Source of the DNA: Candidatus Nealsonbacteria bacterium DGGOD1a
GTDB taxonomy: Bacteria > Patescibacteriota > Minisyncoccia > Minisyncoccales > UBA5738
Direction of reading: 5' to 3'
Assembly: GCA_022530585.1 (NCBI GenBank)
Contig: CP092821.1
Location: 1,089,509-1,153,508, forward strand
DNA: 64,000 nucleotides
A program made the translations under genes and the position numbers. Of this stretch, positions 2,663 to 61,575 are shown one piece after another. Position 1 is the stretch's first letter; the number at the start of each line of letters is the position of its first letter. The notes below the pieces were generated by a model. The model worked only from the letters and a program-made list of their open reading frames with translations. It searched no databases and was not told the origin of the DNA.

Positions 2663-3127
2663 ATGAAAGTGTTCGCCGAAAACAAAAAAGCCGGATTTAA
2701 TTACAATATCGAAGAAAAATTCGAGGCGGGTTTGAGTTTGAACGGACAGGAAGCCAAAGCCATCAAAACCCGCGGATTATCCCTGGCCGGATCGTATGTG
2801 ATCGCCAAACCCGGCGGAGTTTTTTGGATCGGCGCCAAAATTCCGGCCTATCAACCCGCCAACGCCGGCGCCGACTACCACGAAGAACGCGACCGAAAGC
2901 TGTTGTTGCGCAAACACGAAATACTGCGTTTAAACGGGATTGCGTCTCAAAAAGGCTTGACTTTTATCCCCCTTCGGCTGTATACTAAAGGGCATTACGA
3001 AGGTTCCGGCAAAATCAAGCTGGAATTTGGAGTTGGCCGCGGCAAAAAGAAATTCGACAAGCGCGAAACATTGAAAAAACGCGAAGTTGATCGGGAAATC
3101 GGCCGCACTTTGGGGAAAATCGGATAA
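2663..3127 (+). CDS. smpB: SsrA-binding protein SmpB
   Basis: 154 aa. NKKAGFNY...EAGLSLNGQEAKAIK is the typical SmpB N-terminus. A tmRNA lies directly downstream. Confidence 0.95.
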   Translation: MKVFAENKKAGFNYNIEEKFEAGLSLNGQEAKAIKTRGLSLAGSYVIAKPGGVFWIGAKIPAYQPANAGADYHEERDRKLLLRKHEILRLNGIASQKGLTFIPLRLYTKGHYEGSGKIKLEFGVGRGKKKFDKRETLKKREVDREIGRTLGKIG

Positions 3128-3129
3128 TT

Positions 3130-3232
3130 TCGAAGCACGAATATTCGAATATCGAAACAAGACTCAATCCTTCAGTAAATTCAGGATCGGATTTGTTTCG
3201 GATTTCGAGTTTCGAACATTCGAGTTTATGTT
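3130..3232. repeat. AT-rich word palindrome built from CGAATATTCGAA / TTCGAACATTCGAG words
   Basis: The left arm CGAATATTCGAATATCGAAACAA is roughly complementary to the right arm TTGTTTCGGATTTCGAGTTTCGAACATTCG. The right arm is homologous to the reverse complement of 29971-30012. Confidence 0.7.
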
Positions 3233-3236
3233 TCAA

Positions 3237-3597
3237 GGGGATGTAAGGCTTCGATGGGAAGCCGGTCTCGCGATCGCAAGCCAAGTAGCCGGATCTTGTA
3301 AAAACCGGCAAACTTCAAAAGTGCCAAATCATTCGCATTTAGCGCACCTGAATTAGTCTACGCTTAATAGCCGACTAAATCTGTCCGATGAACGGATTCT
3401 CCATTAAATTTATCGGGCATAACCTTTTGGAGATAGGGTTCTCTTCCGCCTTAAAGAGCGCCCGAAACAAACAAGGCGAAGAATCCAAGAATTTTGTCGG
3501 GTTTTTATCCTGGGTTCTCAAACAAACCGGACTAAGCTTGTAGATATCGCGCGCCACGGTTTTTCAGATACGGGTTCAAGTCCCGTCGTCTCCACAA
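3237..3597 (+). ncRNA. ssrA: tmRNA (SsrA)
   Basis: The 5' GGGGATG pairs with the 3' CGTCTCC. The 3' end has a tRNA-like T-arm, CGGGTTCAAGTCCCG. The internal tag frame from GCA at 3308 reads (A)NFKSAKSFAFSAPELVYA and stops at TAA 3365-3367. It lies next to smpB. CCA is not encoded. Confidence 0.85.
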
Positions 3598-4482: not shown

Positions 4483-4830
4483 ATGCCACGCGTAAAACGA
4501 GGAACACTGCATCACAAAAGAAGGGCCAATATAATTGAATATACAAAAGGATTCAAATGGGGCCGGAAATCGAAACTAGCCGCGGCAAAACAGGCCATGA
4601 TGAAGGCTTTGAGTTACAACTACCGCGACCGCAAGGTAAAAAAGCGCGATACCCGCGCCATGTGGAACATCCACATCAATGGCATCTGCCGCGCTAACGG
4701 AACGAATTACAGCAAATTTATCGGCGCTTTGAAAAAACAGAACATCGTAATCGACCGCAAAATCCTCTCGCAATTAAGCGAAACCCGGCCCGAACTATTC
4801 CAAGCCATAATGGCCAAAGCCGCCAATTAA
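4483..4830 (+). CDS. rplT: 50S ribosomal protein L20
   Basis: 115 aa. MPRVKRGTLHHKRRANIIEYTKGFKWGR. Confidence 0.95.
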   Translation: MPRVKRGTLHHKRRANIIEYTKGFKWGRKSKLAAAKQAMMKALSYNYRDRKVKKRDTRAMWNIHINGICRANGTNYSKFIGALKKQNIVIDRKILSQLSETRPELFQAIMAKAAN

Positions 4831-4857
4831 AAATATCGGTTTAATTTAAAACTCAAT

Positions 4858-4884
4858 CCCCTCCTCCCGGAGGGGTTTTGTTTT
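4858..4884 (+). terminator. Rho-independent terminator after rplT
   Basis: CCCCTCC-TCCC-GGAGGGG stem-loop followed by TTTTGTTTT. Confidence 0.8.
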
Positions 4885-4890
4885 ATAACT

Positions 4891-5014
4891 TTGAATTACG
4901 AAACGCTTTGCATTTGGGGTCTATCCCTTGCTGCCTGTCCCGAGTATTCCCGAGGGATAATCGCAAGGGTTAGACCCCTTCAAGGCATTTGAATTTAATG
5001 TTTTCGTAATTCAA
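4891..5014. repeat. 124-bp nested palindromic element
   Basis: Outer arms TTGAATTACGAAA / TTTCGTAATTCAA. Inner arms GGGGTCTATCCCTTGC / GCAAGGGTTAGACCCC. Confidence 0.7.
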
Positions 5015-5073
5015 GATTATAATAAACTTGCGTCCGTTCTATTTAACGGGCGCATTGGATTGCGATACGCTAA

Positions 5074-5250
5074 GGCGGCTTCCATAAATAACTTCCATAT
5101 ATTGCCCGCGGATTTGGTTCAGATTTCAATTTTCCGACCGAGCGATATTTGAGGCGTAGCTTTGCTACATTAAAAATATCGCGACCGAGAAAAATTGAAA
5201 TATGAAACAAAGACGGGGGTATGGTGTGGAAGTTATTTATGGAAGCCGCC
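5074..5250. repeat. 177-bp MITE-like palindromic element with perfect 24-bp terminal inverted repeats
   Basis: GGCGGCTTCCATAAATAACTTCCA at 5074-5097 and its exact complement at 5227-5250. Inner arms carry TTTCAATTTT ... AAAATTGAAA. No ORF inside. Confidence 0.7.
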
Positions 5251-6008
5251 TAATTATTCAAATTTTGAAAATTCGGGCAAATAACCGCGCATCTGCCGGC
5301 AACGCACATCGACGCGAACGGACAGCGCGACATAGCCAGATAATCGCCCGGAGTGGAACACTCAAAATCATGGACGCAGACAATATCGGTCATTTTTTCC
5401 ACTTTATAATCAAAATCCGCGTTAAAATAGGTTTTGGCGCGTTCGCGGTTAATCTGAAAAGTTTTTTCATTATACGAATTTAAGGCTTTATTGCGGTATT
5501 CGGAAGGAAAAAATTCGTCAATGTCGCGCGCGAAATAACTGCCGTCGCGCGGCGCCCAGTGCGACAGCGACCCATCGTCAAGCTTGATAATTTTTGCCGG
5601 ACCGGCCGCCCCGCTTCCCTCGTATATCTTCCCGCCATCCAAATAAAATTCTTCGCACGAATAATTCAAATAAACCGCTTCTTCGCCATCGCTTTGGCCG
5701 ATTTTTTCATAAGCGCAAAAAACTTTGCCGCCTTTCGCCGCCGCGGCGAAATTTTTCTCAAGATATTCCGCGATATCGCAATCGATATTGTAAACCGACA
5801 GATCGCATTCGCCGGCGAATGGAGTTTCCGTTTTCTCGGATTTTACCGCGTCGATATCGGAATTTCTTTCCTTTCTGATCGAGAGGCCTTCACTGTCATA
5901 ATCGGGTATAATCGTTTGCGGAATTATCGATACCGCCACAAAAGTGAGAATCGCGGCCGAAATCAATATAAATATGGTTAATTTATTCATATAAAATTTT
6001 GTTATCAA
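5250..6008 (-). CDS. Hypothetical secreted or membrane-anchored protein with a Cys-rich C-terminus
   Basis: N-terminal hydrophobic anchor NKLTIFILISAAILTFVAVSII. The C-terminus reads CVHDFECSTPGDYLAMSRCPFASMCVAGRCAVICP. No family recognised. Confidence 0.55.
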   Translation of the reverse strand: MITKFYMNKLTIFILISAAILTFVAVSIIPQTIIPDYDSEGLSIRKERNSDIDAVKSEKTETPFAGECDLSVYNIDCDIAEYLEKNFAAAAKGGKVFCAYEKIGQSDGEEAVYLNYSCEEFYLDGGKIYEGSGAAGPAKIIKLDDGSLSHWAPRDGSYFARDIDEFFPSEYRNKALNSYNEKTFQINRERAKTYFNADFDYKVEKMTDIVCVHDFECSTPGDYLAMSRCPFASMCVAGRCAVICPNFQNLNN

Positions 6009-9820: not shown

Positions 9821-10327
9821 TCAAATTTTGCGCGCGTCATAGGCCCAGTGCAAAACCGCTTGGCGCTGTTTTTTGCGGCACGACAAATCGCGCGGCGCGC
9901 AATTATTTTTGATTTGGGCGATGTGCCGTGCGATCGCTTTCCATCTTTTGATCTGCCATTGGTCATATTCGGGCATTCGGCGGCCCATATAATAGCGGCA
10001 ATACCACTGAAACCATCCCCGCGGATCCGCCGGATGGATCCAGCCTTTGGCACGCCAAACAGAAAGCGGCTGTGACGCGTTGACACCGAAGCAGTTTAAT
10101 TTCGGATCGTGAAATTCCGAGTTTAATTTCGCTTTTTCATACCAATCTTTCGGAAATTCCTTTTGGCAATCGGTCATATATTTGCCGCCGAATATTCCCA
10201 TCGCCAGCATTCGCTTGGGTGTCAATTCCGGCAAAAAATCCGAATCGAAATTCTCCCCCATCGGCTCGATCAAAAAATATTCATATCCTTTTTGCATTTT
10301 GTCATTGACCGTGATTTTTATTTTCAT
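9821..10327 (-). CDS. Conserved hypothetical protein rich in W/Y (GWFQWYCRYYMGRR motif)
   Basis: Its ATG overlaps the stop of the upstream hydrolase as ATGA (10324-10327). The sequence looks like a conserved family, but I cannot name it. Confidence 0.6.
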   Translation of the reverse strand: MKIKITVNDKMQKGYEYFLIEPMGENFDSDFLPELTPKRMLAMGIFGGKYMTDCQKEFPKDWYEKAKLNSEFHDPKLNCFGVNASQPLSVWRAKGWIHPADPRGWFQWYCRYYMGRRMPEYDQWQIKRWKAIARHIAQIKNNCAPRDLSCRKKQRQAVLHWAYDARKI

Positions 10328-11127
10328 TTGGTTAAAAATTCCACCGCCTTGGGAAACCATTGTTCCCAGAAATCCGGCCGCTCAAGATCGTGGTCGCCGC
10401 CGGGAACGATTATCCGGTTGGGAAATTCAACATTCAAACTTTCCAACGGAACCGACAAATCAAACTGGCCATGAACATGCAAAACCCGGTCTTTAAAATC
10501 ATCAAAGCTGTGCGAAAAATCCATATCTTTGGCCTCCAAAAAATAATCCGGTTTGATATAATTTTCCCGCGTCATTTTTCCGCGGCGCGCGCAATCGATC
10601 AAAAAATCGCCTTCATCCAAATATTGCCGATAATTTTGCCAATTTATTTTTGCGTTCGGATTCTTCTTTTTCATCAGATCGCGGACAAAATAAAACCGCA
10701 ATAAATCTTTTTGGTTTAATGCCGGCGCGATAAAAACCAGCTTGTTGGTCGATGATTCGACCGCGCCAAAAACCAGCGCCAGCGGGCACATCCCCAAACT
10801 GTGCGCCACAAAATTTATTTTCAAATCGCCGCATTCTTTGCGAAAAGCTTCCAACGCCTTCAATAATTCTCTCGCGCGGCCCTTTAATGTAATTTTTGAA
10901 AAATCACCCTCCGACAACCCGCACCCGGACGCGTCAAAACGCAATGACGCGACATTGTTTTTCGCCAATTCGATCGCCATCGATTTGGCTTTCTTTTCCA
11001 CGGTCGCGTTGCGCTCAAATCCCTGCAGAAAAATCGCTCCGAATTCCGGCTTTTTGTCGGGAACCGTCAAAATCCCCCGCAAGATTTCATGATCCTGATT
11101 TTTGAACTCGATTAGCTTTATTCGCAT
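10324..11127 (-). CDS. Alpha/beta hydrolase
   Basis: Nucleophile elbow AHSLG, and a C-terminal GGDHD region typical of the fold. Confidence 0.75.
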   Translation of the reverse strand: MRIKLIEFKNQDHEILRGILTVPDKKPEFGAIFLQGFERNATVEKKAKSMAIELAKNNVASLRFDASGCGLSEGDFSKITLKGRARELLKALEAFRKECGDLKINFVAHSLGMCPLALVFGAVESSTNKLVFIAPALNQKDLLRFYFVRDLMKKKNPNAKINWQNYRQYLDEGDFLIDCARRGKMTRENYIKPDYFLEAKDMDFSHSFDDFKDRVLHVHGQFDLSVPLESLNVEFPNRIIVPGGDHDLERPDFWEQWFPKAVEFLTK

Positions 11128-11128
11128 A

Positions 11129-12514
11129 TTATAAAATTAACTTGTCGCGATGAATCAACCTAACATTTTCCGTTTTTGCTCGCGCGATCATATCTTTGGT
11201 GAAACCGCTTTTGGAAAACAGCGCGTAGTATTCTTTTCTGGCGTCGCGATTCCAATCAACCAGCCGCGCTTTTCTTTTCAGATTTTCATAAATATCGGTG
11301 CCGATCATTTTTTGCGACCATTTGGCTTCGCCAAATAAAATTTCCTTGGTTTCCGAATTCAACGCCACAACATCAATTTCCTCATTTTTATCCCACCACT
11401 TCCCCGCCCGCTCAAAATAGAACAAACCGTCCTCAATCTCCCGCGCCAATTCAAGGCAAATGTCTTCATACGCGATTGATTCAAGCACGAAAAAATTTTC
11501 TTTTATTTTTCTCAACGGCTCATCGTGGCGGCCGATTTCCAAATCGCTTTTATATAGATAAACATATTGAAACCAAAAACGGACGAAATTATCGCAAAGC
11601 TTATATAATCCTTTCCGCGATTTTGCCGCCGAAGATTCGGTAACCGAAAATTCTCTTTCCACGATCTGCAGTCTTTCCAAAACCGACAGATATTTGTTCG
11701 TTAAATTTTTATCAAGCCCGGTTTCGTTGACGATGTTGCCCAGCTTTGTTTTTCCAAACGCCGCCGCCTTTAAAATCGCCATGTAATTCTTTGGCTCCCT
11801 CAATTCCTGCCGAAGGATAAAATCAACCTCGTTGAAAAGATAAGCTGTCGGTAAAAATATTTTATCCAAAATATTGGCCTCAATGGAACTCTTGGGATTG
11901 AATTCCGCCAAATAAGCCGGCATTCCGCCGGTTATCGCGTATATTTCCAAAAAATCATTAAAACTTTTATCGGGAAAAAATTGCCAACTCGGCCGAAACG
12001 CAAGCGGTTTTAACAACAACTGCCCGGTGCGCCGGCCGAAAAGCGGCGCGCTGTAAATCAAAGTTTCCGATTCCATCATCGCGATACTTGATCCCGAAAG
12101 GATAAGAAAGATATTGCTTTCTTTTAAAAACTCATCCCATCCTTTTTGAAACAGCGAAGAAACCGCCTTGTCGGCCTCGGCCAAATAGGGATATTCGTCG
12201 ATCGCCAAAACAAACCTTTCTCTAATGTTTTTTTTAAGATATTCAAACACATCAAGCCATTGGGCAAAACCGTTGCGCGCCAATGCCGGATCGCCAAATT
12301 GACCGCCGATCGCCCGGCCCAAGCTTTGCAATTGCTCTTTTTCCGTGCTCTGGCTGGCCAAAAAATAAACCGCCTGTTTGTCTTTGATAAATTGCTTGAT
12401 CAACTCGGTCTTTCCCACACGCCGCTTGCCATAGATAATAAAAAGTTGCGCGGTATCACTCGCCCATCTTTCTTCCAGCGCTTTTAATTCTCGCTCGCGG
12501 TCAATGAATTTCAT
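11129..12514 (-). CDS. AAA+ ATPase of the archaeal-ATPase/DUF234 type
   Basis: FIDRERELKALEERW...IIYGKRRVGKTELIK carries a Walker A motif. The C-terminal part resembles DUF234. Confidence 0.75.
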   Translation of the reverse strand: MKFIDRERELKALEERWASDTAQLFIIYGKRRVGKTELIKQFIKDKQAVYFLASQSTEKEQLQSLGRAIGGQFGDPALARNGFAQWLDVFEYLKKNIRERFVLAIDEYPYLAEADKAVSSLFQKGWDEFLKESNIFLILSGSSIAMMESETLIYSAPLFGRRTGQLLLKPLAFRPSWQFFPDKSFNDFLEIYAITGGMPAYLAEFNPKSSIEANILDKIFLPTAYLFNEVDFILRQELREPKNYMAILKAAAFGKTKLGNIVNETGLDKNLTNKYLSVLERLQIVEREFSVTESSAAKSRKGLYKLCDNFVRFWFQYVYLYKSDLEIGRHDEPLRKIKENFFVLESIAYEDICLELAREIEDGLFYFERAGKWWDKNEEIDVVALNSETKEILFGEAKWSQKMIGTDIYENLKRKARLVDWNRDARKEYYALFSKSGFTKDMIARAKTENVRLIHRDKLIL

Positions 12515-12571: not shown

Positions 12572-12796
12572 TCAAGACCGCCGCATTCGGATATCCAAAC
12601 AATCGTCCGTAGCGCTTGAATCATTATAATCGGTATAAATTCGCGCCATCGCGTCCAAAAATCCGTTGGCATAAAAATTTCCCGCGCGTCCGTGAAAATG
12701 CAAAACCGCCGCCCTTGCCTCCCCCTCCGGCGCGAACAACAATCCATCCAGCCACAACTCGTCTTTTGTATTAACCCGGCAAAATTCCGTTTTCAT
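12572..12796 (-). pseudogene. N-terminal remnant (74 aa) of an alpha/beta hydrolase paralogous to 26259-26675
   Basis: MKTEFCRVNTKDELWLDGLLFAPEGEARAAVLHFHGRAGNFYANGFLDAMA aligns with MKTTFCRTDTCDQLKLPGLLFEPDAGSKIGILHLHGRAGGFYANAFLDAMA. The frame then ends. Confidence 0.7.
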
Positions 12797-14072: not shown

Positions 14073-14106
14073 GACATTCTCACATTCTCAAGAATGTTGG
14101 AATGTC
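14073..14106. promoter_or_regulatory. Near-palindromic candidate operator, copy A (between the arsR-like stop and the deacetylase start)
   Basis: ACATTC-TC-ACATTC-TCAA-GAATGT-TG-GAATGT. The same 32 nt occur in inverted orientation at 14424-14455. Confidence 0.5.
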
Positions 14107-14381
14107 CGTATAAATTCAACGAAACGCTTGCCGTAGGGCGATAATGTTTGCGCTACCTGGCGGCCTTGATAATTTTTATTGACCAATCCCGCCTGCACCA
14201 AACGCCTGACATGCTCTGAAATTGTTTTAAAATTAACGTCTAAAATATTGGCGATATCCTCAACCTTGATCCCCTCTTTTTTGGCAATTAATAATAAAAT
14301 ATCGATACGGCGATGATTGGCCACCCCCTTAAAATAACGCTCCAATTGCTTGGCAGTTTTCTGTTTTTCGGCCTCTTCCAT
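14088..14381 (-). CDS. ArsR/SmtB-family winged-helix transcriptional regulator
   Basis: ANHRRIDILLLIAKKEGIKVEDIANILDVNFKTISEHVRRLVQAGLV. Confidence 0.8.
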   Translation of the reverse strand: MEEAEKQKTAKQLERYFKGVANHRRIDILLLIAKKEGIKVEDIANILDVNFKTISEHVRRLVQAGLVNKNYQGRQVAQTLSPYGKRFVEFIRTFQHS

Positions 14382-14423
14382 AAATTTTAATTATTTGATT
14401 AAAATTATATCAAATATTAAACA

Positions 14424-14455
14424 ACATTCCAACATTCTTGAGAATGTGAGAATGT
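14424..14455. promoter_or_regulatory. Near-palindromic candidate operator, copy B (upstream of the arsR-like gene)
   Basis: ACATTCCAACATTCTTGAGAATGTGAGAATGT is the reverse complement of copy A. It lies 43-74 nt upstream of the start codon. Confidence 0.5.
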
Positions 14456-20996: not shown

Positions 20997-21251
20997 TTAT
21001 TTAGCCCCTTGCGGCGGAAACTGAGGCATATTCAACTGGGTAGCCAAAGTCCCAAGACTTTTATACATCTTTATTGATACTTTTGTTAAAGTTATAACTT
21101 CCGCCGGTTTGAGCAAAAGCTCTACCTTATCGGCATATGAGCGCCCCTTTATTGCGACATCAATTTTGTCACAAATCGGACAATCCTGCCGGTGATTCCT
21201 CATATCAGCGCTCAGCGCACATAAAAAACAAACATTTATTGACCTTCGCAT
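20997..21251 (-). pseudogene. Hypothetical gene whose 5' end is interrupted by the IS630-family element
   Basis: The annotated ATG lies inside the IS terminal repeat. After removing the IS and one TA, the frame stays open into 22366-22420 (..VSTLDEETKVALNVCFLCALSADMRNHRQDCPICDK..). Confidence 0.45.
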
Positions 21252-21269
21252 AATAGATTGACTATCATA

Positions 21270-21834
21270 TCAATATAATTCGGAAGCCTTTAAAAATCCT
21301 TTCATTAATTCTTTGTCTCCGGCGATCTTGCATTTGCCGGATTTGACCGCCCGCCCCAGGGCGGGCAGGCCTTGCGGCCGCAAGTTGCAGACATATTTGT
21401 TTTTCATCGCCGCCCAGAAATATTCAACGGGATTAAGCTCGGGCGCGTAGGCCGGAAATCTCTCAACTCGCAACCAGTATTTTTGAGTTTTTAAATATTC
21501 TTTGACGATCTTGGCGCGATGTGCCGCCAATCCATCCCAGAAAAGAAGCAATCTTTTTCCCTTAAACCAGTATTTTAATAATTTTAAATATACAAGCACA
21601 TCTTCTTTTTTGACGCTTCCTTTTTTGCTTTTCAAAAACATCGCCGGATTGCTTCCTGCCGGCGCGCAAACCAGCGTTGCCGTCAAACTCATTGCGGCCC
21701 ACGATCCGGTGGATTTGATTACCGGCGTTTTGCCTTTAATCGCCCAGGTTTTTCTGACCGTGGGGCGGTCGGAAATTCCCGATTCATCATGGAATCCCAG
21801 CTTAAAATGATGTTTTTGCGCCCATTTTTTTTAA
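21270..21834 (-). CDS. IS630 transposase, DDE catalytic part (orfB, reached by a +1 shift at the A8 run)
   Basis: FHDESG ... LLFWDGLAAHRA ... YAPELNPVEYFW forms the DD(35)E triad. The frame opens exactly at the A8 run (21825-21832). Confidence 0.8.
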
Positions 21835-22308
21835 CCTTGGAAAGGTTTTTACTCTCCAAGTTTTGATGGCTTTCTCATCTCTTTCTTTGGCTTTGATTTC
21901 GGGTTTTTGGCTGGTAAAACCCAGCGAGATTACCACCCTCCAGACATGGCCGGGGTGATATTTTGTTCCCGATATCTTTTTGATCAGATCTCGCAGTCTT
22001 GCCAGCGTCCAAAGATCGGTGGCATATCCCTGCTTTTGCGCTCCTTTGAGGATCGCTTTTTTGATTTCGCGTTTTTCCTCTTGGGTCAATTTGGAATCCG
22101 GCCCGGGATTGCCTTTGCTTTTCAGGCCATCCCATCCTTGGGCTTTGTATGCTTCCACCCAATTGCTCACCGCTTCAAAACTGACTCCCAGTTTTTTGGC
22201 GATTTTATATTGGGTTTGGCCTTTTTCCCAAAGCTTTATCGCTTTGATTCTTCTTTTCTGAAGATCATCTTTGCTTTTGCAAGATGGTGAAGATTTACGA
22301 TTTTTCAT
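21802..22308 (-). CDS. IS630 transposase, N-terminal HTH part (orfA)
   Basis: QYKIAKKLGVSFEAVSNWVEAYK and ATDLWTLARLRDLIKK are the HTH motifs typical of IS630/Tc1-like transposases. Confidence 0.85.
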   Translation of the reverse strand: MKNRKSSPSCKSKDDLQKRRIKAIKLWEKGQTQYKIAKKLGVSFEAVSNWVEAYKAQGWDGLKSKGNPGPDSKLTQEEKREIKKAILKGAQKQGYATDLWTLARLRDLIKKISGTKYHPGHVWRVVISLGFTSQKPEIKAKERDEKAIKTWRVKTFPRLKKMGAKTSF

Positions 22309-22456
22309 ATGCCTTCATTATCCCACAAAGGCGATTATAGTCAAGTTATTATGCGAAGGTCAATAACGCTACTTTTGTTTCTTCATCCAAAGTACTCACC
22401 TGCCAGACAAAGTTAAGCAAATTTATAAGATAATGTCAAAATCATCTCGTTCGCTC

Positions 22457-24464: not shown

Positions 24465-24902
24465 TTATTCTTTAATCATCGCAAACCCATCGTTGTTAAT
24501 AGCTCTTCCCTTGCTTATAATTTTCTCAACCATATCCCGATATAACGCAGGCAATAAATCGTCCTGCATTTCTTTAAATCCCTGCTCTTCGTAAAACTTT
24601 TGGTTTCTTCTTCGGCACATCAAATATATCGGCCGTCTTTTTTCCTGGGCAAGAAGCATTTGTATCAGCTTGCCGCCAATCCCTTTTTTCCTAAATCCTT
24701 CAACCACTGCGACGCTCGATAATTCAATATTGCCATCGCCAATCTCGGTTATTCTGGCACATCCCAAAACGCGCCGGCCCTGCGCCGCCACCAAAAAACC
24801 ATCGGCAACCATATTGGACGCATTCAAATCAAAAGCAATCATCATCTCCAATATTTGCGGCAAATCATCCTTGTTCGATTTTCGATAAATAATTTCTTCC
24901 AT
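24465..24902 (-). CDS. GNAT-family N-acetyltransferase
   Basis: VAVVEGFRKKGIGGKLIQML is the acetyl-CoA binding motif. Confidence 0.85.
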   Translation of the reverse strand: MEEIIYRKSNKDDLPQILEMMIAFDLNASNMVADGFLVAAQGRRVLGCARITEIGDGNIELSSVAVVEGFRKKGIGGKLIQMLLAQEKRRPIYLMCRRRNQKFYEEQGFKEMQDDLLPALYRDMVEKIISKGRAINNDGFAMIKE

Positions 24903-24905
24903 TTA

Positions 24906-25178
24906 TCATTTTAAAAAAACTTCGAGTTGAGAATCCAACGCTTTGGCGATTTTTTGCAAAAACAATAACGATGGGTTCGAGCGTCCCGATTCCAAACGGG
25001 AAATTGCCGATTGCTTTGTGCCAATTTTTTCCGCCAGATCTTGTTGCGATAACCCGCTTTTCAATCTTTTTTTAATTACCATTTCGATCAACGCAAATTC
25101 CGGCCCGAGTTTTTCATAATGCTTGGCAATTTCTTCGTCTTTTAATAGTTTGTTTTTAAATTCAGTATATGTTTTCAT
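24906..25178 (-). CDS. XRE-family HTH protein, HigA-like antitoxin
   Basis: GLSQQDLAEKIGTKQSAISRLESGRSNPSLLFLQKIAKAL. It lies directly downstream of a RelE/Gp49-type toxin gene. Confidence 0.8.
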   Translation of the reverse strand: MKTYTEFKNKLLKDEEIAKHYEKLGPEFALIEMVIKKRLKSGLSQQDLAEKIGTKQSAISRLESGRSNPSLLFLQKIAKALDSQLEVFLK

Positions 25179-25199
25179 AAATTATATATAACATATATG

Positions 25200-25529
25200 T
25201 TATATATTAGTCAATCTTTCATGCCTCTGAATAGCAACTTTGATCTCCTTTTTGGGGATTTTATCGGATTTTTTGACGAAACCGTGCAGCAAAATTATAT
25301 TCTTCCTTTTAAAACAATAAAAAAATCTTATTTCCTGCCGGCTCCGAATTCTCAATTCGTAAATCGCGGCGGTTATCTTTTTGCTGTGCGGCATGCCTAA
25401 TTCATGGCCGAAATTCTCAAGCAAATCGATAACCCGCAAAACTTTTGCGATCGCCGGTTTTTCCAAAGAATTTATAAACCCTTCAACCAAATCATCCAAA
25501 ATAATTTTATTATCTCTTTCGTTTCCCAT
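25200..25529 (-). CDS. RelE/ParE-superfamily toxin (phage Gp49/HigB-like)
   Basis: IYELRIRSRQEIRFFYCFKRKNIILLHGFVKKSDKIPKKEIKVA is the typical Gp49/DUF891 core. Confidence 0.8.
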   Translation of the reverse strand: MGNERDNKIILDDLVEGFINSLEKPAIAKVLRVIDLLENFGHELGMPHSKKITAAIYELRIRSRQEIRFFYCFKRKNIILLHGFVKKSDKIPKKEIKVAIQRHERLTNI

Positions 25530-26675
25530 ATTGCAAAACTTCTTTTAACCAAGCCTCAATTAATTCTGCGACTTGATTTTCACATTTGTGATATGTGTGG
25601 TCGGCGCCATCGATTATCGCGGTTTTTGAATTTTGGTTTTTCAAATGGCTGGCGACGATTGCCAGGTCTTCTTTTGGCGAGTTAATACAAAGATTTTCTT
25701 TGGAGCCATAGAACGCCAGAATCGGCATTTTGATTCTCTCCAGCTTCTCAAAATTGCCGTTTTCGAAAACCGGGAAAATATCCGCCTTGGTGTCTTTGCC
25801 GAATTCATCGACGAAACTTTTTGCCGAAATGTAATATGTGCCGCGGATCGGCCGCGGCAACAATTCGTTGCCCCTCCCCTGCGCAACCATAGCTTCCGCT
25901 TCCGCAAGATCTTTTTCAAAATTCTGCGGATCAAATTTTTTCAATAGCCCGGCGGCATCTGCCGGCGACATCAAAACCAGCGCGGTAACATCCGCGGGTA
26001 TTTTTTCATTTAAAAAATAAATTGCTTTGCCGCCGCCCTGGCTTAGCTCGACACTAACTAAGTTTTATCGTTTTAGCAGGATTTATTTGATCTGGATTCT
26101 AGGCGCGAGGAGCGTAATGTAGTCGTAGCACTACATTAGCGACAAGCAACAACGAAGACAGATCAAATAAATCCTGCCCTGCGGGAACATTGAAATTAAA
26201 TCGTTTTCCGCTTCACTCTTCCTCAATGTATCTGAAAAAGATACAATTTCGTCATCGTTCATTGAAACCGACTTAATTTGAATGTTCTAAAACGATAAAA
26301 CTTAGTTAGTGTCGAGCCTCCCTGCAAAATTATTTTTTCATAACCGCGCGACCGGAAAAAATCCAACCACGCGCCAATGTCCAAAACGCATTCTTCAAAA
26401 ATATCAAATGCCTGCCCGATTCTTTTTATCTGGTCGGTATCGCCCACCCGAAAATCCGCGATCTGGTCATGGCCGCGCAAATTAACCGTTAAAAACCCGA
26501 ATCCGGCCGCGGTATAAGTTTCGGCCATCGCGTCCAAAAACGCATTGGCATAAAACCCGCCGGCCCGGCCGTGCAAATGCAAAATGCCGATTTTCGATCC
26601 GGCGTCCGGCTCAAAAAGCAACCCGGGCAATTTCAATTGATCGCAAGTATCTGTCCGGCAAAAAGTAGTTTTCAT
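25510..26675 (-). pseudogene. Alpha/beta hydrolase gene interrupted by a 272-bp TIR element
   Basis: An N-terminal ORF (26259-26675) and a C-terminal ORF (25510-25974 plus an upstream open frame). Deleting 26046-26317 restores ..KIILQGVSQGGGKAIYF.. with a GVSQG nucleophile elbow. Confidence 0.8.
26046..26317. mobile_element. MITE-like non-autonomous element (272 bp) with 31-bp terminal inverted repeats
   Basis: GCTCGACACTAACTAAGTTTTATCGTTTTAG at 26046-26076 and its exact complement at 26287-26317. Nested internal inverted repeats at 26076-26094 / 26159-26177 and at 26115-26138. No ORF inside. Confidence 0.75.
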
Positions 26676-26758
26676 AATTTATCAAATATAATAACTTAAA
26701 TCAGCTTCCAACTCAAACAAAAACCCGGGTTATCCCGGGATTAAAAATTCGATGTTTT

Positions 26759-27610
26759 TTATTTCGCGCCGGTCAGTTTTTTGAAGCCTTCCATAATTTC
26801 CACCGGCAGGGCGAAGATCACGGTTTTGGACGGATCGGGATTTATCTTTTCAATGGTTTGCAAAGTGCGCATCGACAGGCCCCCGGGAGTGTCGGTGAGC
26901 ATTTTGGCGGCTTCGGCCAATCGCGCCGATGCCTGGAATTCGCCTTCGGCGCGGATGATGATGGCTCTTCTTTCGCGTTCGGATTCGGCCTGCTTGGCCA
27001 TAACGCGCTTCATATCCGCGGGCAATTCAATATCCTGGATTTTGATGTCGGTGACATTTATCCCCCAACTGTTGGTGGCTTGGTCAACGATTTGTTTGAT
27101 CGCTTCGGAAATTTTCTCGCGCTCGGAAAGCAGCGGGTCAAGTTCAATACCGCCAATCACATCGCGCAACGCGGCTTGCGCGTATTGCGCCACGGCCAGC
27201 GTGTAATCCTTGATATTCAAAATCGCTTTCTCGGCCGACTCCACCTGGAAATAAACCACGGCGTTGATTCCCACCGGCACATTGTCTTTGGTGATCACTT
27301 CCTGCGACGGAATGTCGGTGGTGGTGATGCGCATATCAACTTTGACCATGCGCTGGATGCCGATCAATATCCATGTCAATCCCGGCGACCGCGTTCCCGA
27401 ATATTGTCCAAGAGTCAAAACAAGCGCCCGTTCATATTGGTCAACCACGCGCAAACCAATAAGAAGGACCGACAAAACCAAGCCTACAAAAATCGCCAGC
27501 AATCCCAGCGGCCCAAAAATGCTCATTGCCGGGCCGACAAGAACAATGGCGCCAATAATCAGCGCGGCGATACTGGACAAAGAACTGATATCTTGATTGT
27601 TTTGTGCCAT
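26759..27610 (-). CDS. SPFH/band-7 (stomatin/slipin-like) membrane protein
   Basis: N-terminal TM segments, then VVDQYERALVLTLGQY...VKVDMRITTTDIPSQEVITKDNVPVGINAVVYFQV. Confidence 0.88.
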   Translation of the reverse strand: MAQNNQDISSLSSIAALIIGAIVLVGPAMSIFGPLGLLAIFVGLVLSVLLIGLRVVDQYERALVLTLGQYSGTRSPGLTWILIGIQRMVKVDMRITTTDIPSQEVITKDNVPVGINAVVYFQVESAEKAILNIKDYTLAVAQYAQAALRDVIGGIELDPLLSEREKISEAIKQIVDQATNSWGINVTDIKIQDIELPADMKRVMAKQAESERERRAIIIRAEGEFQASARLAEAAKMLTDTPGGLSMRTLQTIEKINPDPSKTVIFALPVEIMEGFKKLTGAK

Positions 27611-27689: not shown

Positions 27690-27826
27690 ATTTTCAATTA
27701 TCAATTTACAATTTTCATTGAATTTTCAATGCACCAATGAATCAAACAGAATCCTAACTGAAACATTTGTTTGGAACATTGAAATTTGGAACATTTATTG
27801 TAAATTGTAAATTGAAAATTTTATCT
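27690..27826. repeat. AT-rich word palindrome upstream of recG
   Basis: AATTTTCAATTATCAATTTACAATTTTCATTG ... CATTGAAATTTGGAACATTTATTGTAAATTGTAAATTGAAAATT. Confidence 0.6.
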
Positions 27827-30265: not shown

Positions 30266-30281
30266 ATAATTTTACTTCTTC

Positions 30282-31555: not shown

Positions 31556-32791
31556 TTAAATTTTCCAATACGGAATAAATTTTACTGTTGTGGTTTTTAT
31601 TTTTACCACCGTATCCAGCGACAGATTGACCACCCACGCTTCATTGGGTTTGTATTTTTCAACAAACGACAGCAACGACTTTCCCAAAACCGGCGATTTC
31701 AAATCGATGTATTTGACTTCAACCGGCAGCACTTCCCGGCCGCGATTGATCACAAAATCCACTTCGGCTCCGGAAAGGGTGCGCCAAAAATTTATCACAG
31801 CGGCGGTATCTTTGTTTTTTTCCAAAAGAGCGTTTAAAACAAAATTTTGAAACACAAAAGAAAAGCTTTGCGGATCGGATAACGCCCCCATTAATTCTAT
31901 GGAAAAATTGCGCAAACCAAGATCATAGAAATATGCCGACGACGACCGAGTGATTTCTTTTTGCTTGTTGGTAAAGTATGGCCGGACGATTTTGAGCAAA
32001 AAAATTTTTTGCGCGTACCACAAATATTTTTTCAACGGCGCGAAAGTCAAATCTATTTGCTGGCCCAATTTTGAATAATTCAAAATTTGCCCGGATTGGC
32101 TGGCAATGATTTTAACCATCAACGAAAACGCTTCCGGCCGGTCGATTTCCAAAAGTGAAAGCAGATCTTTTTCAACGCAACTGCGAAAAATCTCCCCCAT
32201 TATTTTGTTTTTCTCCAAAACATGGTTCGCCAAAATAACGCGCGGATAACCGCCGAAATTGAGATATTCTTTCAAAAAAATTTTTGTTCTGTCCTTTTCT
32301 ATTTCAAAATAACTTCCAATCTTGTCTTCATAGCGGTAATCTGTTTTGAAATTCGCGAATTCCTTAAAATTAACCGGATTAATTTCGAAAATTCTTTTTC
32401 GTCCGGCCAGCGATTCGTGAATTTTTTCTTTCAGTTCCAAACTTCCGGATCCGGAAACAATGAATTTATACGGCAAATCCAAATCATAAATTCCCTTCAA
32501 AAAAATCCCGGCATCCTTTTTCCGCTGGATCTCATCGATAAAAACAAACCCCCCGGGCGCAAGATGAATCCTGATTTTTTCAATCAATTCCGCCTGGCTC
32601 GTGAAATATTTTTCATCCGCCTCATTGTCCAAATTTAAAAAAAGATATTTTTTACCGATACTTTCAAGGTGCCCGGCCAACTCACGCATCAATGTAGTTT
32701 TGCCCACTTGCCGCGGGCCGACCAACAAAGTAATTTCTTTTTGAGTTAAATGCTCTTTTAATTCTTGAAAAATCTCCCGCTTAATCAACAT
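31556..32791 (-). CDS. AAA+ ATPase (AAA_14 + DUF4143-type)
   Basis: LLVGPRQVGKTTLMRE is the Walker A and VFIDEIQ the Walker B. The C-terminal ..AEVDFVI..EVK.. is typical of DUF4143 proteins. Confidence 0.75.
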   Translation of the reverse strand: MLIKREIFQELKEHLTQKEITLLVGPRQVGKTTLMRELAGHLESIGKKYLFLNLDNEADEKYFTSQAELIEKIRIHLAPGGFVFIDEIQRKKDAGIFLKGIYDLDLPYKFIVSGSGSLELKEKIHESLAGRKRIFEINPVNFKEFANFKTDYRYEDKIGSYFEIEKDRTKIFLKEYLNFGGYPRVILANHVLEKNKIMGEIFRSCVEKDLLSLLEIDRPEAFSLMVKIIASQSGQILNYSKLGQQIDLTFAPLKKYLWYAQKIFLLKIVRPYFTNKQKEITRSSSAYFYDLGLRNFSIELMGALSDPQSFSFVFQNFVLNALLEKNKDTAAVINFWRTLSGAEVDFVINRGREVLPVEVKYIDLKSPVLGKSLLSFVEKYKPNEAWVVNLSLDTVVKIKTTTVKFIPYWKI

Positions 32792-35385: not shown

Positions 35386-35524
35386 TTATTCTTTTTATAC
35401 CCTGTCGGCTCGCCGCGGGGAACAAAAAGAACGAGGATTCCTTAGCAAAGCGCAAGTAATCTTGAAGGAAACATCCTTTGGTTGATGGCGGGGTTAATAT
35501 CCCGACATCAATGTATTTTTAATT
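35386..35524. repeat. Dispersed structured repeat, copy 1 (139 bp)
   Basis: Matches the reverse complement of 51422-51538 almost base for base, except for a 23-nt insertion (TTAGCAAAGCGCAAGTAATCTTG). Confidence 0.85.
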
Positions 35525-35573
35525 ATCGCCGTTATTGGGAGATACTGACATAATCGCGGGAAAAAAACAATTT

Positions 35574-36713
35574 TTATTTTAATATGTCCAACAATTCCTG
35601 GAATACAAAAACGCGGTTCCTCTTTCTTCCCGGCTCCTCTTTTAATATCCCCAACTGGATGAATTTTTCCAAAAGATTATAAATGGTTTGGGGATTTTTA
35701 GTTTTTAATTTATCTTTTATTTTCGCGTATGTGATTATCGGCGAGACAAAAAGTGATTCCAACAGATTGAGCGCGTAAACCGAATTGGCGGCGGTAATTT
35801 CTTTTTTCAAACGATCGTTTAATTCCAAAATTTTCGAGATTGAATTTTGCGTCTTTAACGATTGAGTTATCAACGCCAGCAAAAAAAATTTAAGCCATGA
35901 TTCCCAGTCGCCCCTTTCGGTCACTCCGCGCAGATAACCGTAATAGTCCTGCCGGTTTCTTTCAAAATATTCGCTGATATACAACAACGGCGACGACAAC
36001 AAATCGCGCTGGTACAAAAACAGCGGAATCAACAACCGGCCCACGCGGCCGTTTCCGTCGCGGAACGGATGGATTGACTCCAGCTGATAATGCGCCGCCG
36101 CGATCTGCACCAACAAATCTTTTTCCTGATTTGAGTTAACATACTTTTCCCAATTCGACAGCAAGGCCGGCAATTCCGCCGGCGCGGGCGGCACATAACT
36201 GGCCTCCTCAATCCGCGCTCCGGGCATGCCAATGTACACCTGTCCGGTCCGGAATTTGCCGCGGTCTTTCTCCGCGCCGCGCGATAAATCAAGCAACAGA
36301 TAATGGATTTTTTTAATAAATGATTGGTTAATCGATTTTGTTTTCAACTCCTCCATCGAAAAATTCATCGCCCGACGATAATTGATAATTTCGGTGATTT
36401 CTCGATTCTGGCCGCCGGCAAGCTCGCCGGCGGGTTGGGCTTCATATTGAAAAACATCTTCCAGCGTCGCTTGCGTGCCTTCAATGCGAGAGCTCAAAAC
36501 CGCCTCTTTCGTCAGCAACGGAGTTACCAGCAATTCCGGACTCAAAATATTTTTTCGCAACAAACCGTTCAATTCGCCGATCGCGCCGTGCGCTTCGCCA
36601 ATCACGCGGATCAGCGAATCATAATTTATTTTCGGAGGCAACGGATCCAATATATAAGATTTGATCGGCATAAAAAGTTTGTTGAAATAAATCAAGCGCT
36701 TGAGTTTTGCCAA
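35574..36713 (-). CDS. Fic-family protein (AMPylase type) with a C-terminal winged-helix-like region
   Basis: Canonical Fic motif HPFRDGNGRVGR. Confidence 0.9.
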   Translation of the reverse strand: MAKLKRLIYFNKLFMPIKSYILDPLPPKINYDSLIRVIGEAHGAIGELNGLLRKNILSPELLVTPLLTKEAVLSSRIEGTQATLEDVFQYEAQPAGELAGGQNREITEIINYRRAMNFSMEELKTKSINQSFIKKIHYLLLDLSRGAEKDRGKFRTGQVYIGMPGARIEEASYVPPAPAELPALLSNWEKYVNSNQEKDLLVQIAAAHYQLESIHPFRDGNGRVGRLLIPLFLYQRDLLSSPLLYISEYFERNRQDYYGYLRGVTERGDWESWLKFFLLALITQSLKTQNSISKILELNDRLKKEITAANSVYALNLLESLFVSPIITYAKIKDKLKTKNPQTIYNLLEKFIQLGILKEEPGRKRNRVFVFQELLDILK

Positions 36714-36847
36714 TAATTCCTCATGCTTTTTATTCTCCGCGGCAAGCTTGCGGCGGATAAAAAGAATAAGGTCTTTTGTTATTCCAAGGTATTGGAATAA
36801 CGGCCTCTGTTATTCTAATCTTAAAGCAACTTGGATGATGATGCAAC

Positions 36848-42576: not shown

Positions 42577-42705
42577 AATCCCAAAGTTCGAATTTCAAAT
42601 GTCAAATCAAGCCCAAATTTCAAATGTCAAAAAGAATGCCGCGTTCCTTTTGAACTTTGAGCTTAGAGCTTTTCTTGACATTTGAATTTACAATTTTGGC
42701 ATTTA
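42577..42705. repeat. Word palindrome (TTCAAATGTCAA words) upstream of pnp
   Basis: TTCAAATGTCAAA occurs twice in direct orientation and TTGACATTTGAA once in inverted orientation. Confidence 0.6.
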
Positions 42706-51421: not shown

Positions 51422-51538
51422 AATTAAAAATACATTGATGTCGGGGTATTAACCCCGCCATCAACCAAAGGATGTTTCCTTTGGAATCCTCATTCTTTTT
51501 ATTCCCCGCGGCGAGCCGACGGGGTATAAAAAGAATAA
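51422..51538. repeat. Dispersed structured repeat, copy 2 (117 bp)
   Basis: Reverse complement of 35386-35524 minus the 23-nt insertion. It ends 23 nt before the rsmA start codon. Confidence 0.85.
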
Positions 51539-51561
51539 AGCCGCGCGGCACCGAAAAAAAT

Positions 51562-52392
51562 ATGCATCGAAAACTCGAAAAAAAACAAACCATAACTCCC
51601 AAAAAAGGCCTGGGGCAAAATTTTTTAACGCAAATCGGAGTGATCGAAAAGCTGGTCAAAACCGCCGGAATAAAACAAGGAGAAACGATTCTCGAAATCG
51701 GGCCCGGCACCGGCAATTTAACCGCCGAACTGGCAAAACGCGGCGACAAAATAATCGCCATCGAAAAAGACGCGGATATGATGGCAATCCTAGAAAAAAG
51801 GTTTTTAAAAACGCCCAATGTCGAAATATCAAACGGCAATGCGCTGCGCTTCAATGAAGCCGAAATTTCTTCTCCGTATAAAATCGCGGCCAATTTGCCG
51901 TTCTATTTAACCGCGCCGCTGATCCGCAAGTTCTTGGAAAGCGCCAACCCGCCATTATCGCTGACCGTGATCGTGCAAAAAGAAGTCGCCCAACGAATAT
52001 GCGCCGTGCCGCCCAAAATGAATTTGCTGGCGGTTTCGACGCAGTTTTACGCCGCGGCCAAAATTATTGATTACATTTCCAAAGGAAATTTCTGGCCCGT
52101 GCCCAAAGTTGATTGCGCCATTCTGCAAGTCATTCCGCGCACGCATATATATGAAGGGGGAGGGACCGGCAAAAAATTCACCGAACAATTTTTCAAAATC
52201 GTAAAAGCCGGATTTTCCCACCCGCGCAAACAGTTGGCAAACAATCTGGCCAAACAATTAAAACTCAATAAAGAAAAAATCGCCGCGTGGCTGGCCGGCG
52301 GCGGCATTGATTCCAACCGGCGAGCCGAAACTCTGACGGTCGCCGACTGGGTGAAGCTTACGCAAACCCGACCGATGGATTATACTAAATAG
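51562..52392 (+). CDS. rsmA: 16S rRNA (adenine1518/1519-N6)-dimethyltransferase
   Basis: KKGLGQNFL and EIGPGTGNLT motifs. The start is set at ATG 51562 because the longer ORF runs through the repeat element. Confidence 0.9.
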   Translation: MHRKLEKKQTITPKKGLGQNFLTQIGVIEKLVKTAGIKQGETILEIGPGTGNLTAELAKRGDKIIAIEKDADMMAILEKRFLKTPNVEISNGNALRFNEAEISSPYKIAANLPFYLTAPLIRKFLESANPPLSLTVIVQKEVAQRICAVPPKMNLLAVSTQFYAAAKIIDYISKGNFWPVPKVDCAILQVIPRTHIYEGGGTGKKFTEQFFKIVKAGFSHPRKQLANNLAKQLKLNKEKIAAWLAGGGIDSNRRAETLTVADWVKLTQTRPMDYTK

Positions 52393-55169: not shown

Positions 55170-55181
55170 AAAAAATTTATA

Positions 55182-57557: not shown

Positions 57558-57569
57558 ATCTTCGCTCTT

Positions 57570-58298
57570 ATGAAACTACCCGCGCCGCTAATCATAGTTT
57601 TGTTTTCAATCGCCGCTTTGGCAATGTCTGTTTACTGGCAGTTTTCCGGCGGCAGATTAAACATCGGCGGCAATAATTTACAATTCCCGGAATTCGACAA
57701 ATCGGTTTATTTAAAAAACCCTTACCAAAAAGACCCTGAAGCGGCAAAAGAACCCTATGTTGATTTCACCAGCCCGGACGGAAACTTAACCCTCAAATAT
57801 CCGTCGGCATTTTCCGGCGGCGAGACTTTGTTTGGACAAGAAACCCTGGCCAAGCTAAAATTAAATAACATCCTGCTGTTTGCCTATCAAATTTCAATTC
57901 CCGATCTTCAACCTTCATATATACTGGCGTCGGAAACCAACGGCACCACCACCGAAGACATCGCCGAACAAATAAAACAGTCCCTCGGCCGGCAACAATG
58001 CGCCGCCAGTGTCCAAAATGCCAGCTCAACCAATCCCGCGATATTTGAAATAATCAACGCCGGCTATGAATGCGCCGATGCGATGAACGGCTTCAACAAG
58101 TGGCAATCGACGGCCGCGCTGGTCAAAAAGGAAAACGGCTTCTATATTATCGCGGCGATCACCACGGACAAAAATTGGCCCAACATCCAAACCGCCGCCC
58201 AATCTTTATTTAACTCGATATCAATCAGTGTTTCCGAACAAAACGCGACCGGCACGATCGCGACCGGCACGGAAGAAACGATCGAATCCAAACCGTAA
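57570..58298 (+). CDS. Membrane-anchored hypothetical protein (possibly a PsbP/DcrB-like fold)
   Basis: N-terminal TM helix LIIVLFSIAALAMSVYW followed by an extracytoplasmic alpha/beta-looking domain. The fold call is a guess. Confidence 0.45.
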   Translation: MKLPAPLIIVLFSIAALAMSVYWQFSGGRLNIGGNNLQFPEFDKSVYLKNPYQKDPEAAKEPYVDFTSPDGNLTLKYPSAFSGGETLFGQETLAKLKLNNILLFAYQISIPDLQPSYILASETNGTTTEDIAEQIKQSLGRQQCAASVQNASSTNPAIFEIINAGYECADAMNGFNKWQSTAALVKKENGFYIIAAITTDKNWPNIQTAAQSLFNSISISVSEQNATGTIATGTEETIESKP

Positions 58299-58316
58299 AA
58301 ATTATTATCGATAATT

Positions 58317-59276: not shown

Positions 59277-59279
59277 GAT

Positions 59280-61526: not shown

Positions 61527-61542
61527 AATCCAAACCACCGAC

Positions 61543-61575
61543 AAAAAATCGAGCCGCGGCCTGGCTCGATTTTTT
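61543..61575 (+). terminator. Rho-independent terminator closing the pilin-domain gene cluster
   Basis: AAAAAATCGAGCC-GCGGCCT-GGCTCGATTTTTT. Confidence 0.8.

Follow-up and report, generated by a model that had tools for sequence, protein, structure and literature searches.

A structured 272-bp insertion in an alpha/beta hydrolase gene of Candidatus Nealsonbacteria bacterium DGGOD1a and its relative at an unrelated site

A 272-bp element interrupts a hydrolase gene

In the genome of Candidatus Nealsonbacteria bacterium DGGOD1a, a member of the Candidate Phyla Radiation (CPR), we analyzed a 64,000-nt stretch of contig CP092821.1 (positions 1,089,509–1,153,508; hereafter, the window), in which an alpha/beta hydrolase gene is interrupted by a 272-bp element at positions 26046–26317 (unstranded). 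Alignments show the element to be an insertion relative to all homologs of the gene, and a second copy on a contig from another organism shows that it belongs to a previously unrecognized family that occurs at unrelated sites. A preliminary description of the window had already called it a discrete inserted mobile element, and the second copy supports this. The explanation that we favor, with somewhat better than even confidence, is that it is a non-autonomous, structure-defined DNA mobile element that inserted in a dispensable hydrolase gene of a transposase-rich CPR episymbiont.

The element has a GC content of 38.6%, compared with 45.5% for the window, and is bounded by perfect 31-bp terminal inverted repeats (TIRs) of the sequence GCTCGACACTAACTAAGTTTTATCGTTTTAG at 26046–26076 (plus strand) and 26287–26317 (minus strand). 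The repeats contain no mismatch, do not extend outward, and occur only twice in the 64 kb, where the chance expectation was 0.00. The sense orientation of the element, which aligns to the plus strand of the second copy and has the direction of the host gene, is the minus strand of the window. The 5′ part of the hydrolase gene (26318–26675, minus strand) holds codons 1–119 and the first base of codon 120, and the 3′ part (25510–26045, minus strand) holds the last two bases of codon 120, Ser121 of the G-x-S-x-G motif, and the remainder through the stop codon. The break is located inside codon 120, one residue ahead of Ser121. When exactly 272 bp were conceptually deleted, a single 297-aa frame was obtained, reading ..KIILQGVSQGGGK.., and the rejoined protein matched the Pfam families Hydrolase_4, DUF1749, and Abhydrolase_1 and aligned without gaps across the junction with 290-aa homologs from Paceibacteria/Minisyncoccales (best identity 87%). 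In its present form, the reading frame continues for 18 codons into the TIR and then stops, giving a 138-aa product. These results agree with the earlier claims that excision restores one open frame and that the gene is inactivated as it stands, and we read the hydrolase gene as having been turned into a pseudogene by the insertion, that is, as a recent knock-out. A two-piece enzyme was rejected because there is no in-frame start codon for the 3′ part before 25974. Translational bypassing was rejected as well: although a GGA take-off codon is present, a landing site to match it is not, and 272 nt is much too great a distance.

The residue preceding the catalytic serine is His in 43 and Tyr in 6 of the 49 homologs with the motif, including Tyr in the six closest, whereas the rejoined window has Val (GTA). 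Therefore, excision does not restore the ancestral gene. The GVSQG nucleophile elbow that had been described as recreated by excision has the right frame and length, but its Val is not ancestral, and the insertion is not “precise” in the sense of a restorable original. At the DNA level, the relatives read CAGGG-[G/T]-TA[C/T]-AGCC and the window reads CAGGG-AG|TA-AGCC; four of six bases differ between conserved flanks. Junctions shifted in frame within ±2 nt encode Leu, Val, or Gly, and never His or Tyr. In the simplest description, a base has been gained on the 5′ side of the junction and another lost 3′ of the TA, a change that points to probable remodeling of the target during the insertion event. 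As previously noted, no base is repeated across the two window junctions, which means that there is no target-site duplication (TSD). Every TSD model that was considered, of 2, 3, or 4 bp, with TA, or with a palindromic AGCT, fails or, in the window, disrupts the frame, and a serine-recombinase core of 2 bp was rejected because it does not fit both the junctions and the frame. The scrambled three to four target bases would also be explained if the element were palindromic filler DNA captured in double-strand-break repair and not itself mobile, and both the non-ancestral junction codon and a difference expressible as one nucleotide gained on one side and one lost on the other agree with such an origin. 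However, a second copy of identical length at an unrelated locus of another organism, with a signature of selection on its fold and loops, makes this origin very improbable.

The halves of the hydrolase gene show no decay. They contain one unusual substitution at conserved columns, the same as intact relatives, and the dN/dS of the window branch (0.10–0.12) is also like that of intact relatives. Therefore, the interruption is either recent on the scale of gene divergence or harmless. The TIRs of the window copy, still without a mismatch, agree with this.

A second, truncated copy of the hydrolase family had been placed at 12572–12796. A truncated paralog is indeed present, but the homologous part covers only 12632–12796 (minus strand), an N-terminal fragment of 55 aa with 62% identity (E = 4e−18). 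It breaks off before an ATPase_2/DUF234 gene, has no related repeat or TIR nearby, and is a decay event separate from the 272-bp insertion. The adjacent gene (11129–12514; ATPase_2/DUF234/AAA_14), which follows the truncated paralog, also adjoins the gene of a third alpha/beta hydrolase (10324–11127; 267 aa), which is more distantly related, seems to be intact, and has a weak Hydrolase_4 match.

A second copy occurs at an unrelated site in another organism

An exhaustive HMMER search with a 51-residue open stretch of the element retrieved a 59-aa protein (72% identity, E = 3e−10) encoded on contig L034 (ENA ERZ18627720). Positions 1672–1943 of this contig are a second copy of exactly 272 nt, which aligns without gaps to the minus strand of the window and is identical to it at 210 of 272 positions (77%). 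The TIRs of the L034 copy match each other at 27 of 31 positions and are identical to the window TIR at only 21 of 31. The genes on L034, encoding a PEP-utilizers enzyme, a ROK protein, and a MarR-like protein, have no counterparts in the window. The copy starts at the last base of the TAG stop codon of the upstream gene, whose Pfam domain is complete (72 of 72 profile positions) and ends nine residues before the stop. Because this gene ends at its own stop codon with a complete domain, the L034 copy is effectively intergenic. No TSD was found at the L034 copy either. The flanks of the window and L034 copies are GGAG| and CCTA|, respectively, on the sense strand, and CTTA| and ACCG| on the antisense strand; no flanking motif common to both copies was detected, with 8 of 15 upstream bases matching (p about 0.05).

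The relative was found through an open reading frame (ORF) that appears to be accidental. The preliminary description had reported no ORF; a sole ORF of 43 aa is in fact open in the element, but comparison with L034 gave no coding signal. The differences are spread 8/8/9 over the three codon positions, with 12 nonsynonymous and 4 synonymous codons, and the frame of L034 continues past a position that is a stop codon in the window copy. A coding function of the 43/59-aa ORF was rejected on the basis of the codon-position spread and the codon counts.

Other searches for relatives were negative. No exact match to a 25-mer or an 18-mer of the TIR was found in the GTDB representative genomes, and no match to a TIR 20-mer was found in the JGI metagenomes, in a scan that missed contig L010 (Ga0206388_1080462), which contains that 20-mer. 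The single metagenome match (L033) to a two-ended 11+11 pattern was due to chance, showing no similarity beyond the 22 forced bases, and the nine matches to a 15-mer in IMG/VR were all chance matches. Two patterns from the conserved blocks had no match in IMG/VR, and blastn against plasmids and phages gave chance-level matches only. Six-frame and tail peptides of the element had no match in a word-indexed protein database, and no exact match to the 43-aa ORF was found. The exact k-mer scans failed because the TIR of L034 is so divergent, and the zeros of the DNA scans are weak evidence, since the k-mers targeted the poorly conserved TIR tips and the JGI scan missed L010.

The fold and four internal-loop blocks are conserved between the two copies

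Between the TIRs are two further nested inverted repeats, each enclosing a small apical hairpin: repeat A at 26076–26099/26154–26177 (24 nt, 92% identity) and repeat B at 26185–26208/26264–26287 (24 nt, 88% identity). Arm A (26076–26177), a hairpin module of 102 nt, has a 24-bp stem, 15-nt internal-loop strands, and a 24-nt apical hairpin; arm B (26185–26287), of 103 nt, has segment lengths of 24/15/24/16/24; and a 7-nt inter-arm spacer (26178–26184) is located between them at a three-way junction (all three unstranded). Because the arms share the segment lengths 24/15/24/15–16/24, they are two versions of one module. The predicted fold of the whole element is a three-way junction of about 100 base pairs, formed by the 31-bp closing stem and the two arms. 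Its stability greatly exceeds that of shuffled sequences, with z = −12.8 and −11.5 for the two strands as RNA and z = −14.3 as DNA. The perfect TIRs, the two nested inverted repeats, and the heavy secondary structure of the preliminary description were thus all confirmed, the last by folding both orientations.

Of the 104 predicted pairs examined over the two copies, 29 differ, and 96.6% of the cells are paired. Twenty of the 29 differing pairs have changed on both sides and are still paired (seven in the closing stem, seven in arm A, and six in arm B). When the partners were slid, the number of such changes was 0–1, and none of 500 shuffles reached the observed value. The differences between the copies are distributed unevenly, at 19/60 in the TIRs, 22/96 in the arm stems, 16/48 in the apical hairpins, and 4/61 in the four internal-loop blocks (4/61 versus 58/211 elsewhere; Fisher p = 4e−4). 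In sense orientation (window minus strand), these blocks are CGCTCCTCGCGCCTA at 26100–26114, identical in the two copies and within the one 26-mer that is invariant in both (26096–26121); GTTGTTGCTTGTCGC at 26139–26153, with 2 of 15 positions different in L034; GAGGAAGAGTGAAGCG at 26209–26224, with 1 of 16 different; and AATGAACGATGACGA at 26249–26263, with 1 of 15 different. These conservation figures compare two copies only, the window copy and L034. Since 20 pair changes are compensated and the loop blocks are nearly invariant, the comparison shows a family whose evolution has apparently been constrained by selection on the fold and on four short sequences that are unpaired.

The structural evidence argues for a DNA element rather than an RNA element

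The preliminary description had left open that the element acts at the RNA level, and we found no support for this. The helices are almost purely Watson-Crick, with about 100 pairs compared with 0–4 G·U pairs per fold. The stabilities of the two strands are within 3–7 kcal/mol of each other, with neither consistently better, and the transition mismatches (G·U and A·C) are few and about evenly divided between the strands. A functional RNA normally tolerates G·U only on its own strand. Such strict strand symmetry is what a cruciform, or the use of either DNA strand, would demand. Neither copy has a match in Rfam, and RF00028, RF00029, and ribozymes gave none at E ≤ 10. From the Watson-Crick helices, the strand symmetry, and the absence of an Rfam match, we conclude that the element probably acts as DNA rather than RNA.

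These results bear on two alternatives in which RNA would be the functional form. In the first, the element would be intron-like, the 272 nt being cut out of the RNA through self-cleavage or through a host dsRNA or structure-specific nuclease together with a ligase, so that a hydrolase with a Val elbow is made. Exact removal does restore frame and length; the gene halves are undecayed, with low dN/dS and fewer polymorphisms than the element (see below); the two copies are oriented alike with respect to the gene upstream; and covarying stems with conserved loops are a classical signature of functional RNA. Introns are also unusually common in Patescibacteria, where only group I introns were found, in tRNA and rRNA genes, and intervening sequences of a similar size (200–300 nt) are frequent in the phylum (PMC13011429). 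However, neither copy matches a group I intron, a group II intron, or a ribozyme in Rfam, the helices are strand-symmetric, and no in-frame junction within ±2 nt gives His or Tyr. In the L034 copy, which follows a natural stop codon outside the ORF, splicing would be pointless.

The boundaries do not fit an intron either. In a group I intron, the 5′ exon ends in U and the intron ends in G, whereas group II introns read GUGYG...AY. The 5′ exon here ends in ..GGGAG and the element reads GCUCGAC...GUCGAGC; the group I rule fails because the exon ends in G and the element in C, and the group II nucleotides are absent from the element. An archaeal-type bulge-helix-bulge has two 3-nt bulges with a 4-bp helix between them at the exon-intron junctions. 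None could be drawn by hand here: the perfect 31-bp stem reaches both junctions unbulged, and the flanks GGAG/GCCA cannot form the central helix. The element shows none of the features of group I introns, namely, location in tRNA or rRNA genes, a match to RF00028, U/omega-G boundaries, and strand-specific RNA folds. An intron-like element is therefore improbable.

In the second alternative, the element would be a mobile or duplicated gene for a structured noncoding RNA, or a cis-element of 3′ untranslated regions (UTRs), with RNA as the product and its landing in the hydrolase gene incidental. The conserved loops, the covarying stems, the exact conservation of length, and the sense orientation of the L034 copy in a 3′-UTR-like position are in its favor, but the wobble pairs have no strand bias, no promoter-like or terminator-like signal was found in the element, there is no Rfam family, and one of the two copies destroys a gene. 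We regard this alternative as distinctly unlikely.

The interrupted gene is found in independent assemblies and in a sister strain

At least 11 contigs encode the identical 138-aa truncated product; they come from NCBI, JGI, and ENA assemblies that belong to different projects and periods. NCBI JARDUI010000019.1 matches the window at 100% identity and corresponds to JGI 3300019861, the metagenome of the benzene-degrading methanogenic consortium DGG-1A (PMC10190668), and the same interrupted sequence is present in JGI 2020627003 and 2061766000 and in ENA ERZ922796/7 and ERZ27315062. A contig of a sister strain (L011), about 99.5% identical elsewhere, carries the element with two substitutions, both at unpaired positions. 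The element has persisted across strains and more than 10 years of sampling. A polymorphism among the DGG strains at 26197 breaks a stem pair and is uncompensated, which fits neutral decay after insertion. No intact allele of the hydrolase closer than 87% identity was found among 5.8 billion protein clusters.

Assemblers can be misled by inverted repeats, and Logan contigs do break at the TIR, ending 30 nt into it, as expected for k = 31; the odd start of another contig (L015) is an Illumina adapter. The occurrence of the same sequence in independent assemblies from several projects and assemblers, and in the sister strain with its two substitutions, refutes an assembly chimera, and an artifact can practically be dismissed. 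Another alternative is an inverton, an intragenic switch in which the 31-bp inverted repeats would serve as recombination sites of an invertase. Perfect inverted repeats do bracket a 210-bp segment, but both orientations keep the 272 nt and the stop codons, so that neither restores the gene, every contig spanning the site carries the element in a single orientation, and no invertase or recombinase gene was found in the window. This alternative is extremely improbable.

The hydrolase gene is separated from an acetyltransferase gene by a toxin-antitoxin pair consisting of a HigB-like gene (Gp49, 25200–25529) and a helix-turn-helix (HTH) antitoxin gene (24906–25178). The HigB-like gene overlaps the 3′ end of the hydrolase gene and adds 7 residues to the hydrolase, and in two relatives (L007 and L008) the hydrolase gene directly abuts the acetyltransferase gene. 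Between the window and L011, a 2.3-kb block (24609–26904) containing the 3′ end of a Band_7 gene, the interrupted hydrolase gene, and the toxin-antitoxin pair is almost identical. Because it is bordered by patches with 7–20% divergence, this block suggests a probable recombinational exchange between strains.

Candidate routes of mobilization

In the DGGOD1a genome, 39 transposases have been reported (bioRxiv 10.1101/2022.04.20.488981). The window contains one element of the IS630 family (21236–22366), with 33-bp TIRs (91% identity) and the canonical TA/TA duplication; its TIRs are unrelated to those of the 272-bp element. The transposase, which is a unique copy, is split into an HTH ORF (21802–22308, minus strand) and a DDE_3 ORF (21270–21692, minus strand). 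L011 is without a block of about 3.5 kb that includes this IS630, and the Fer4 and methyltransferase genes lying around it in the block are likewise absent there. No other transposase gene was found in the window. On the same contig (L037), an IS200-type Y1 HUH transposase gene (Y1_Tnp; 2888–3370, 160 aa) is located 7 kb to the left of the window; its product has the HUH motif DHVHM and the catalytic Tyr, and the gene is flanked by short GC-rich hairpins. A DDE_Tnp_1 transposase gene (4618–5427) is located 5 kb to the left of the window, with a YafQ-type toxin pair between the two. The nearby Y1_Tnp shows only that this enzyme class is present. The element was rejected as a retron, a bridge RNA, or an attC site, because it lacks the core motifs and there is neither a reverse transcriptase nor an IS110 recombinase nor an integrase.

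The preliminary description had taken the element for a MITE, a miniature inverted-repeat transposable element. Like the bacterial MITEs, such as Correia/NEMIS of Neisseria, RUP of Streptococcus, and MITEAba12, which are about 100–300 bp in length, it has TIRs, strong secondary structure, and no coding capacity, it disrupts a gene, and its mobilization is presumed to occur in trans. Classical MITEs have the TSD typical of their parent insertion sequence (IS) and TIRs matching that IS, and they usually occur in multiple copies. In contrast, the element has no TSD at either copy, no related autonomous IS that could be found, and an apparently low copy number, with a single copy in 84 kb; its TIR tips are its most variable part, and its length is conserved to the base. 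Therefore, the reading as a classical MITE was not supported.

Similarities are also seen with the palindrome-associated elements (PATEs) derived from IS200/IS605 and with REPINs, both mobilized by Y1 HUH transposases (TnpA/RAYT), which share the absence of a TSD, the dependence on DNA hairpins, the compensatory evolution of stems, and a typical site just downstream of genes, as in the L034 copy; a Y1_Tnp is also encoded 7 kb from the window. PATEs and REPINs have no long TIRs and short (~20-nt) subterminal hairpins, REPINs are present in high copy number, and IS200/IS605 elements insert 3′ of a fixed tetra- or pentanucleotide. The element differs in that a 31-bp TIR closes it, its hairpins are of ~100 nt with large conserved internal loops, and no common tetra- or pentanucleotide occurs 5′ of the left end in the two copies compared. 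Rickettsia palindromic elements (RPEs) are likewise palindromic selfish DNA inside genes of a host-associated bacterium with a reduced genome, with no obvious transposase partner. RPEs are inserted in frame and translated within the host protein, whereas the 272 nt of the element is not a multiple of 3, with stops in five of the six frames and a stop 18 codons into the sixth. The T-shaped inverted terminal repeats (ITRs) of parvoviruses and adeno-associated virus (AAV), and the long attC sites of integrons, are structural analogs only: their outer palindrome also encloses two inner ones to form a three-way junction. In these systems, HUH (Rep) or tyrosine (IntI) enzymes recognize a folded single strand, and conservation is greater in structure than in sequence. 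By eye, the element contains no RYYYAAC/GTTRRRY core sites; there is no associated Rep or integrase gene, and the biology is entirely different.

If the element is a non-autonomous DNA mobile element, as we favor, its movement would depend on folded DNA, either as a cruciform or as a hairpin formed by one or the other single strand. A trans-acting structure-specific enzyme may recognize the conserved internal-loop blocks; candidate classes are single-strand transposases of the HUH/Y1 type and recombinases specific for junctions or hairpins. With such an enzyme, joining would occur precisely at the foot of the closing stem and no staggered cut would be made; this would account for the absence of a TSD. 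The three to four altered target bases at the junction would most simply be a by-product of the insertion event. A bolder version, which we consider fairly unlikely, is an undescribed class of CPR mobile DNA in which the three-way junction and the four loop blocks are recognized, insertion and excision are seamless, and interruptions act as reversible switches.

Several observations weigh against the mobile-element explanation. The nhmmer search with a family profile, which was built from the element and run over the window and its extension, found one copy only in 84 kb (the 64-kb window and a 20-kb extension) of a genome of roughly 1.16 Mb, and only two family members are known. An autonomous partner was not identified; the profile found nothing at the Y1_Tnp of L037, whose end hairpins are unrelated. 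No target motif is common to the flanks of the two copies. Conservation is lowest at the TIR tips, which is unusual for ends bound by a transposase. An empty-site allele was not found, the best intact homolog being only 87% identical. There is one polymorphism in the 894 nt of the hydrolase halves, compared with three in the 272 nt of the element (p = 0.04), and this deficit could mean that the hydrolase is still constrained. Finally, template switching between the arms of a DNA palindrome can produce compensatory changes in the absence of selection. Clear arguments for function are limited to the conserved loop blocks and the exact length.

Other repeats and genes in and around the window

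Several further repeats were found in the window. Within 14074–14455, a winged-helix gene of the ArsR/MarR type (14088–14381, minus strand; 97 aa) is enclosed by a perfect inverted repeat of 32 nt, ACATTCTCACATTCTCAAGAATGTTGGAATGT, which could be a pair of operator sites or mark a small mobile cassette. A Fic-domain gene (35574–36713, minus strand) is located within 35386–36769, flanked by 71-nt inverted repeats (76% identity), and a third copy of the ~140-bp palindromic unit of this locus occurs at 51422–51539 (81% identity), forming a small dispersed repeat family. The inverted repeats of the ArsR gene, the Fic gene, and IS630 were rejected as relatives of the 272-bp element. Long intergenic hairpin palindromes of 125–180 nt, unrelated to one another in sequence, are located at 4883–5022, 5073–5251, 27696–27820, and 42577–42703. 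A relative of the first unit, 68% identical, occupies another locus in L011 (2590–2693), and the unit is therefore dispersed. The presence of several unrelated palindromes of this type indicates that the host is rich in hairpin-type DNA. Dispersed direct repeats are found at 16323–16658/24129–24464 (336 bp, 78% identity) and at 30276–30348/32896–32968 (73 bp, 90% identity).

Among the other genes, a second AAA_14/DUF4143 gene is located at 31556–32791, and the tmRNA gene (3237–3595) adjoins smpB. A cluster of large uncharacterized proteins at 52392–63240, including a T4SS-pilin-like gene, continues past the window edge into TraC/TraG/PrgI-like genes (L039, 763–3499). The window is close to the replication origin, because dnaA and dnaN are located 6–9 kb past its right end.

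Implications for mobile DNA in the CPR

The genomes of CPR bacteria/Patescibacteria are tiny, and gene loss and mobile DNA are poorly charted in them; the present case is a knock-out, by a small element, at the catalytic serine motif. The element falls outside the rules of classical MITEs and of IS200/IS605, yet it has clearly been shaped by selection. A peptide-level search based on an accidental ORF found its relative where k-mers from the TIR tips had failed, and similar families may therefore be missed routinely. If the family is widespread, it would represent a new structure-based mobile element and would point to an enzyme that recognizes branched DNA.

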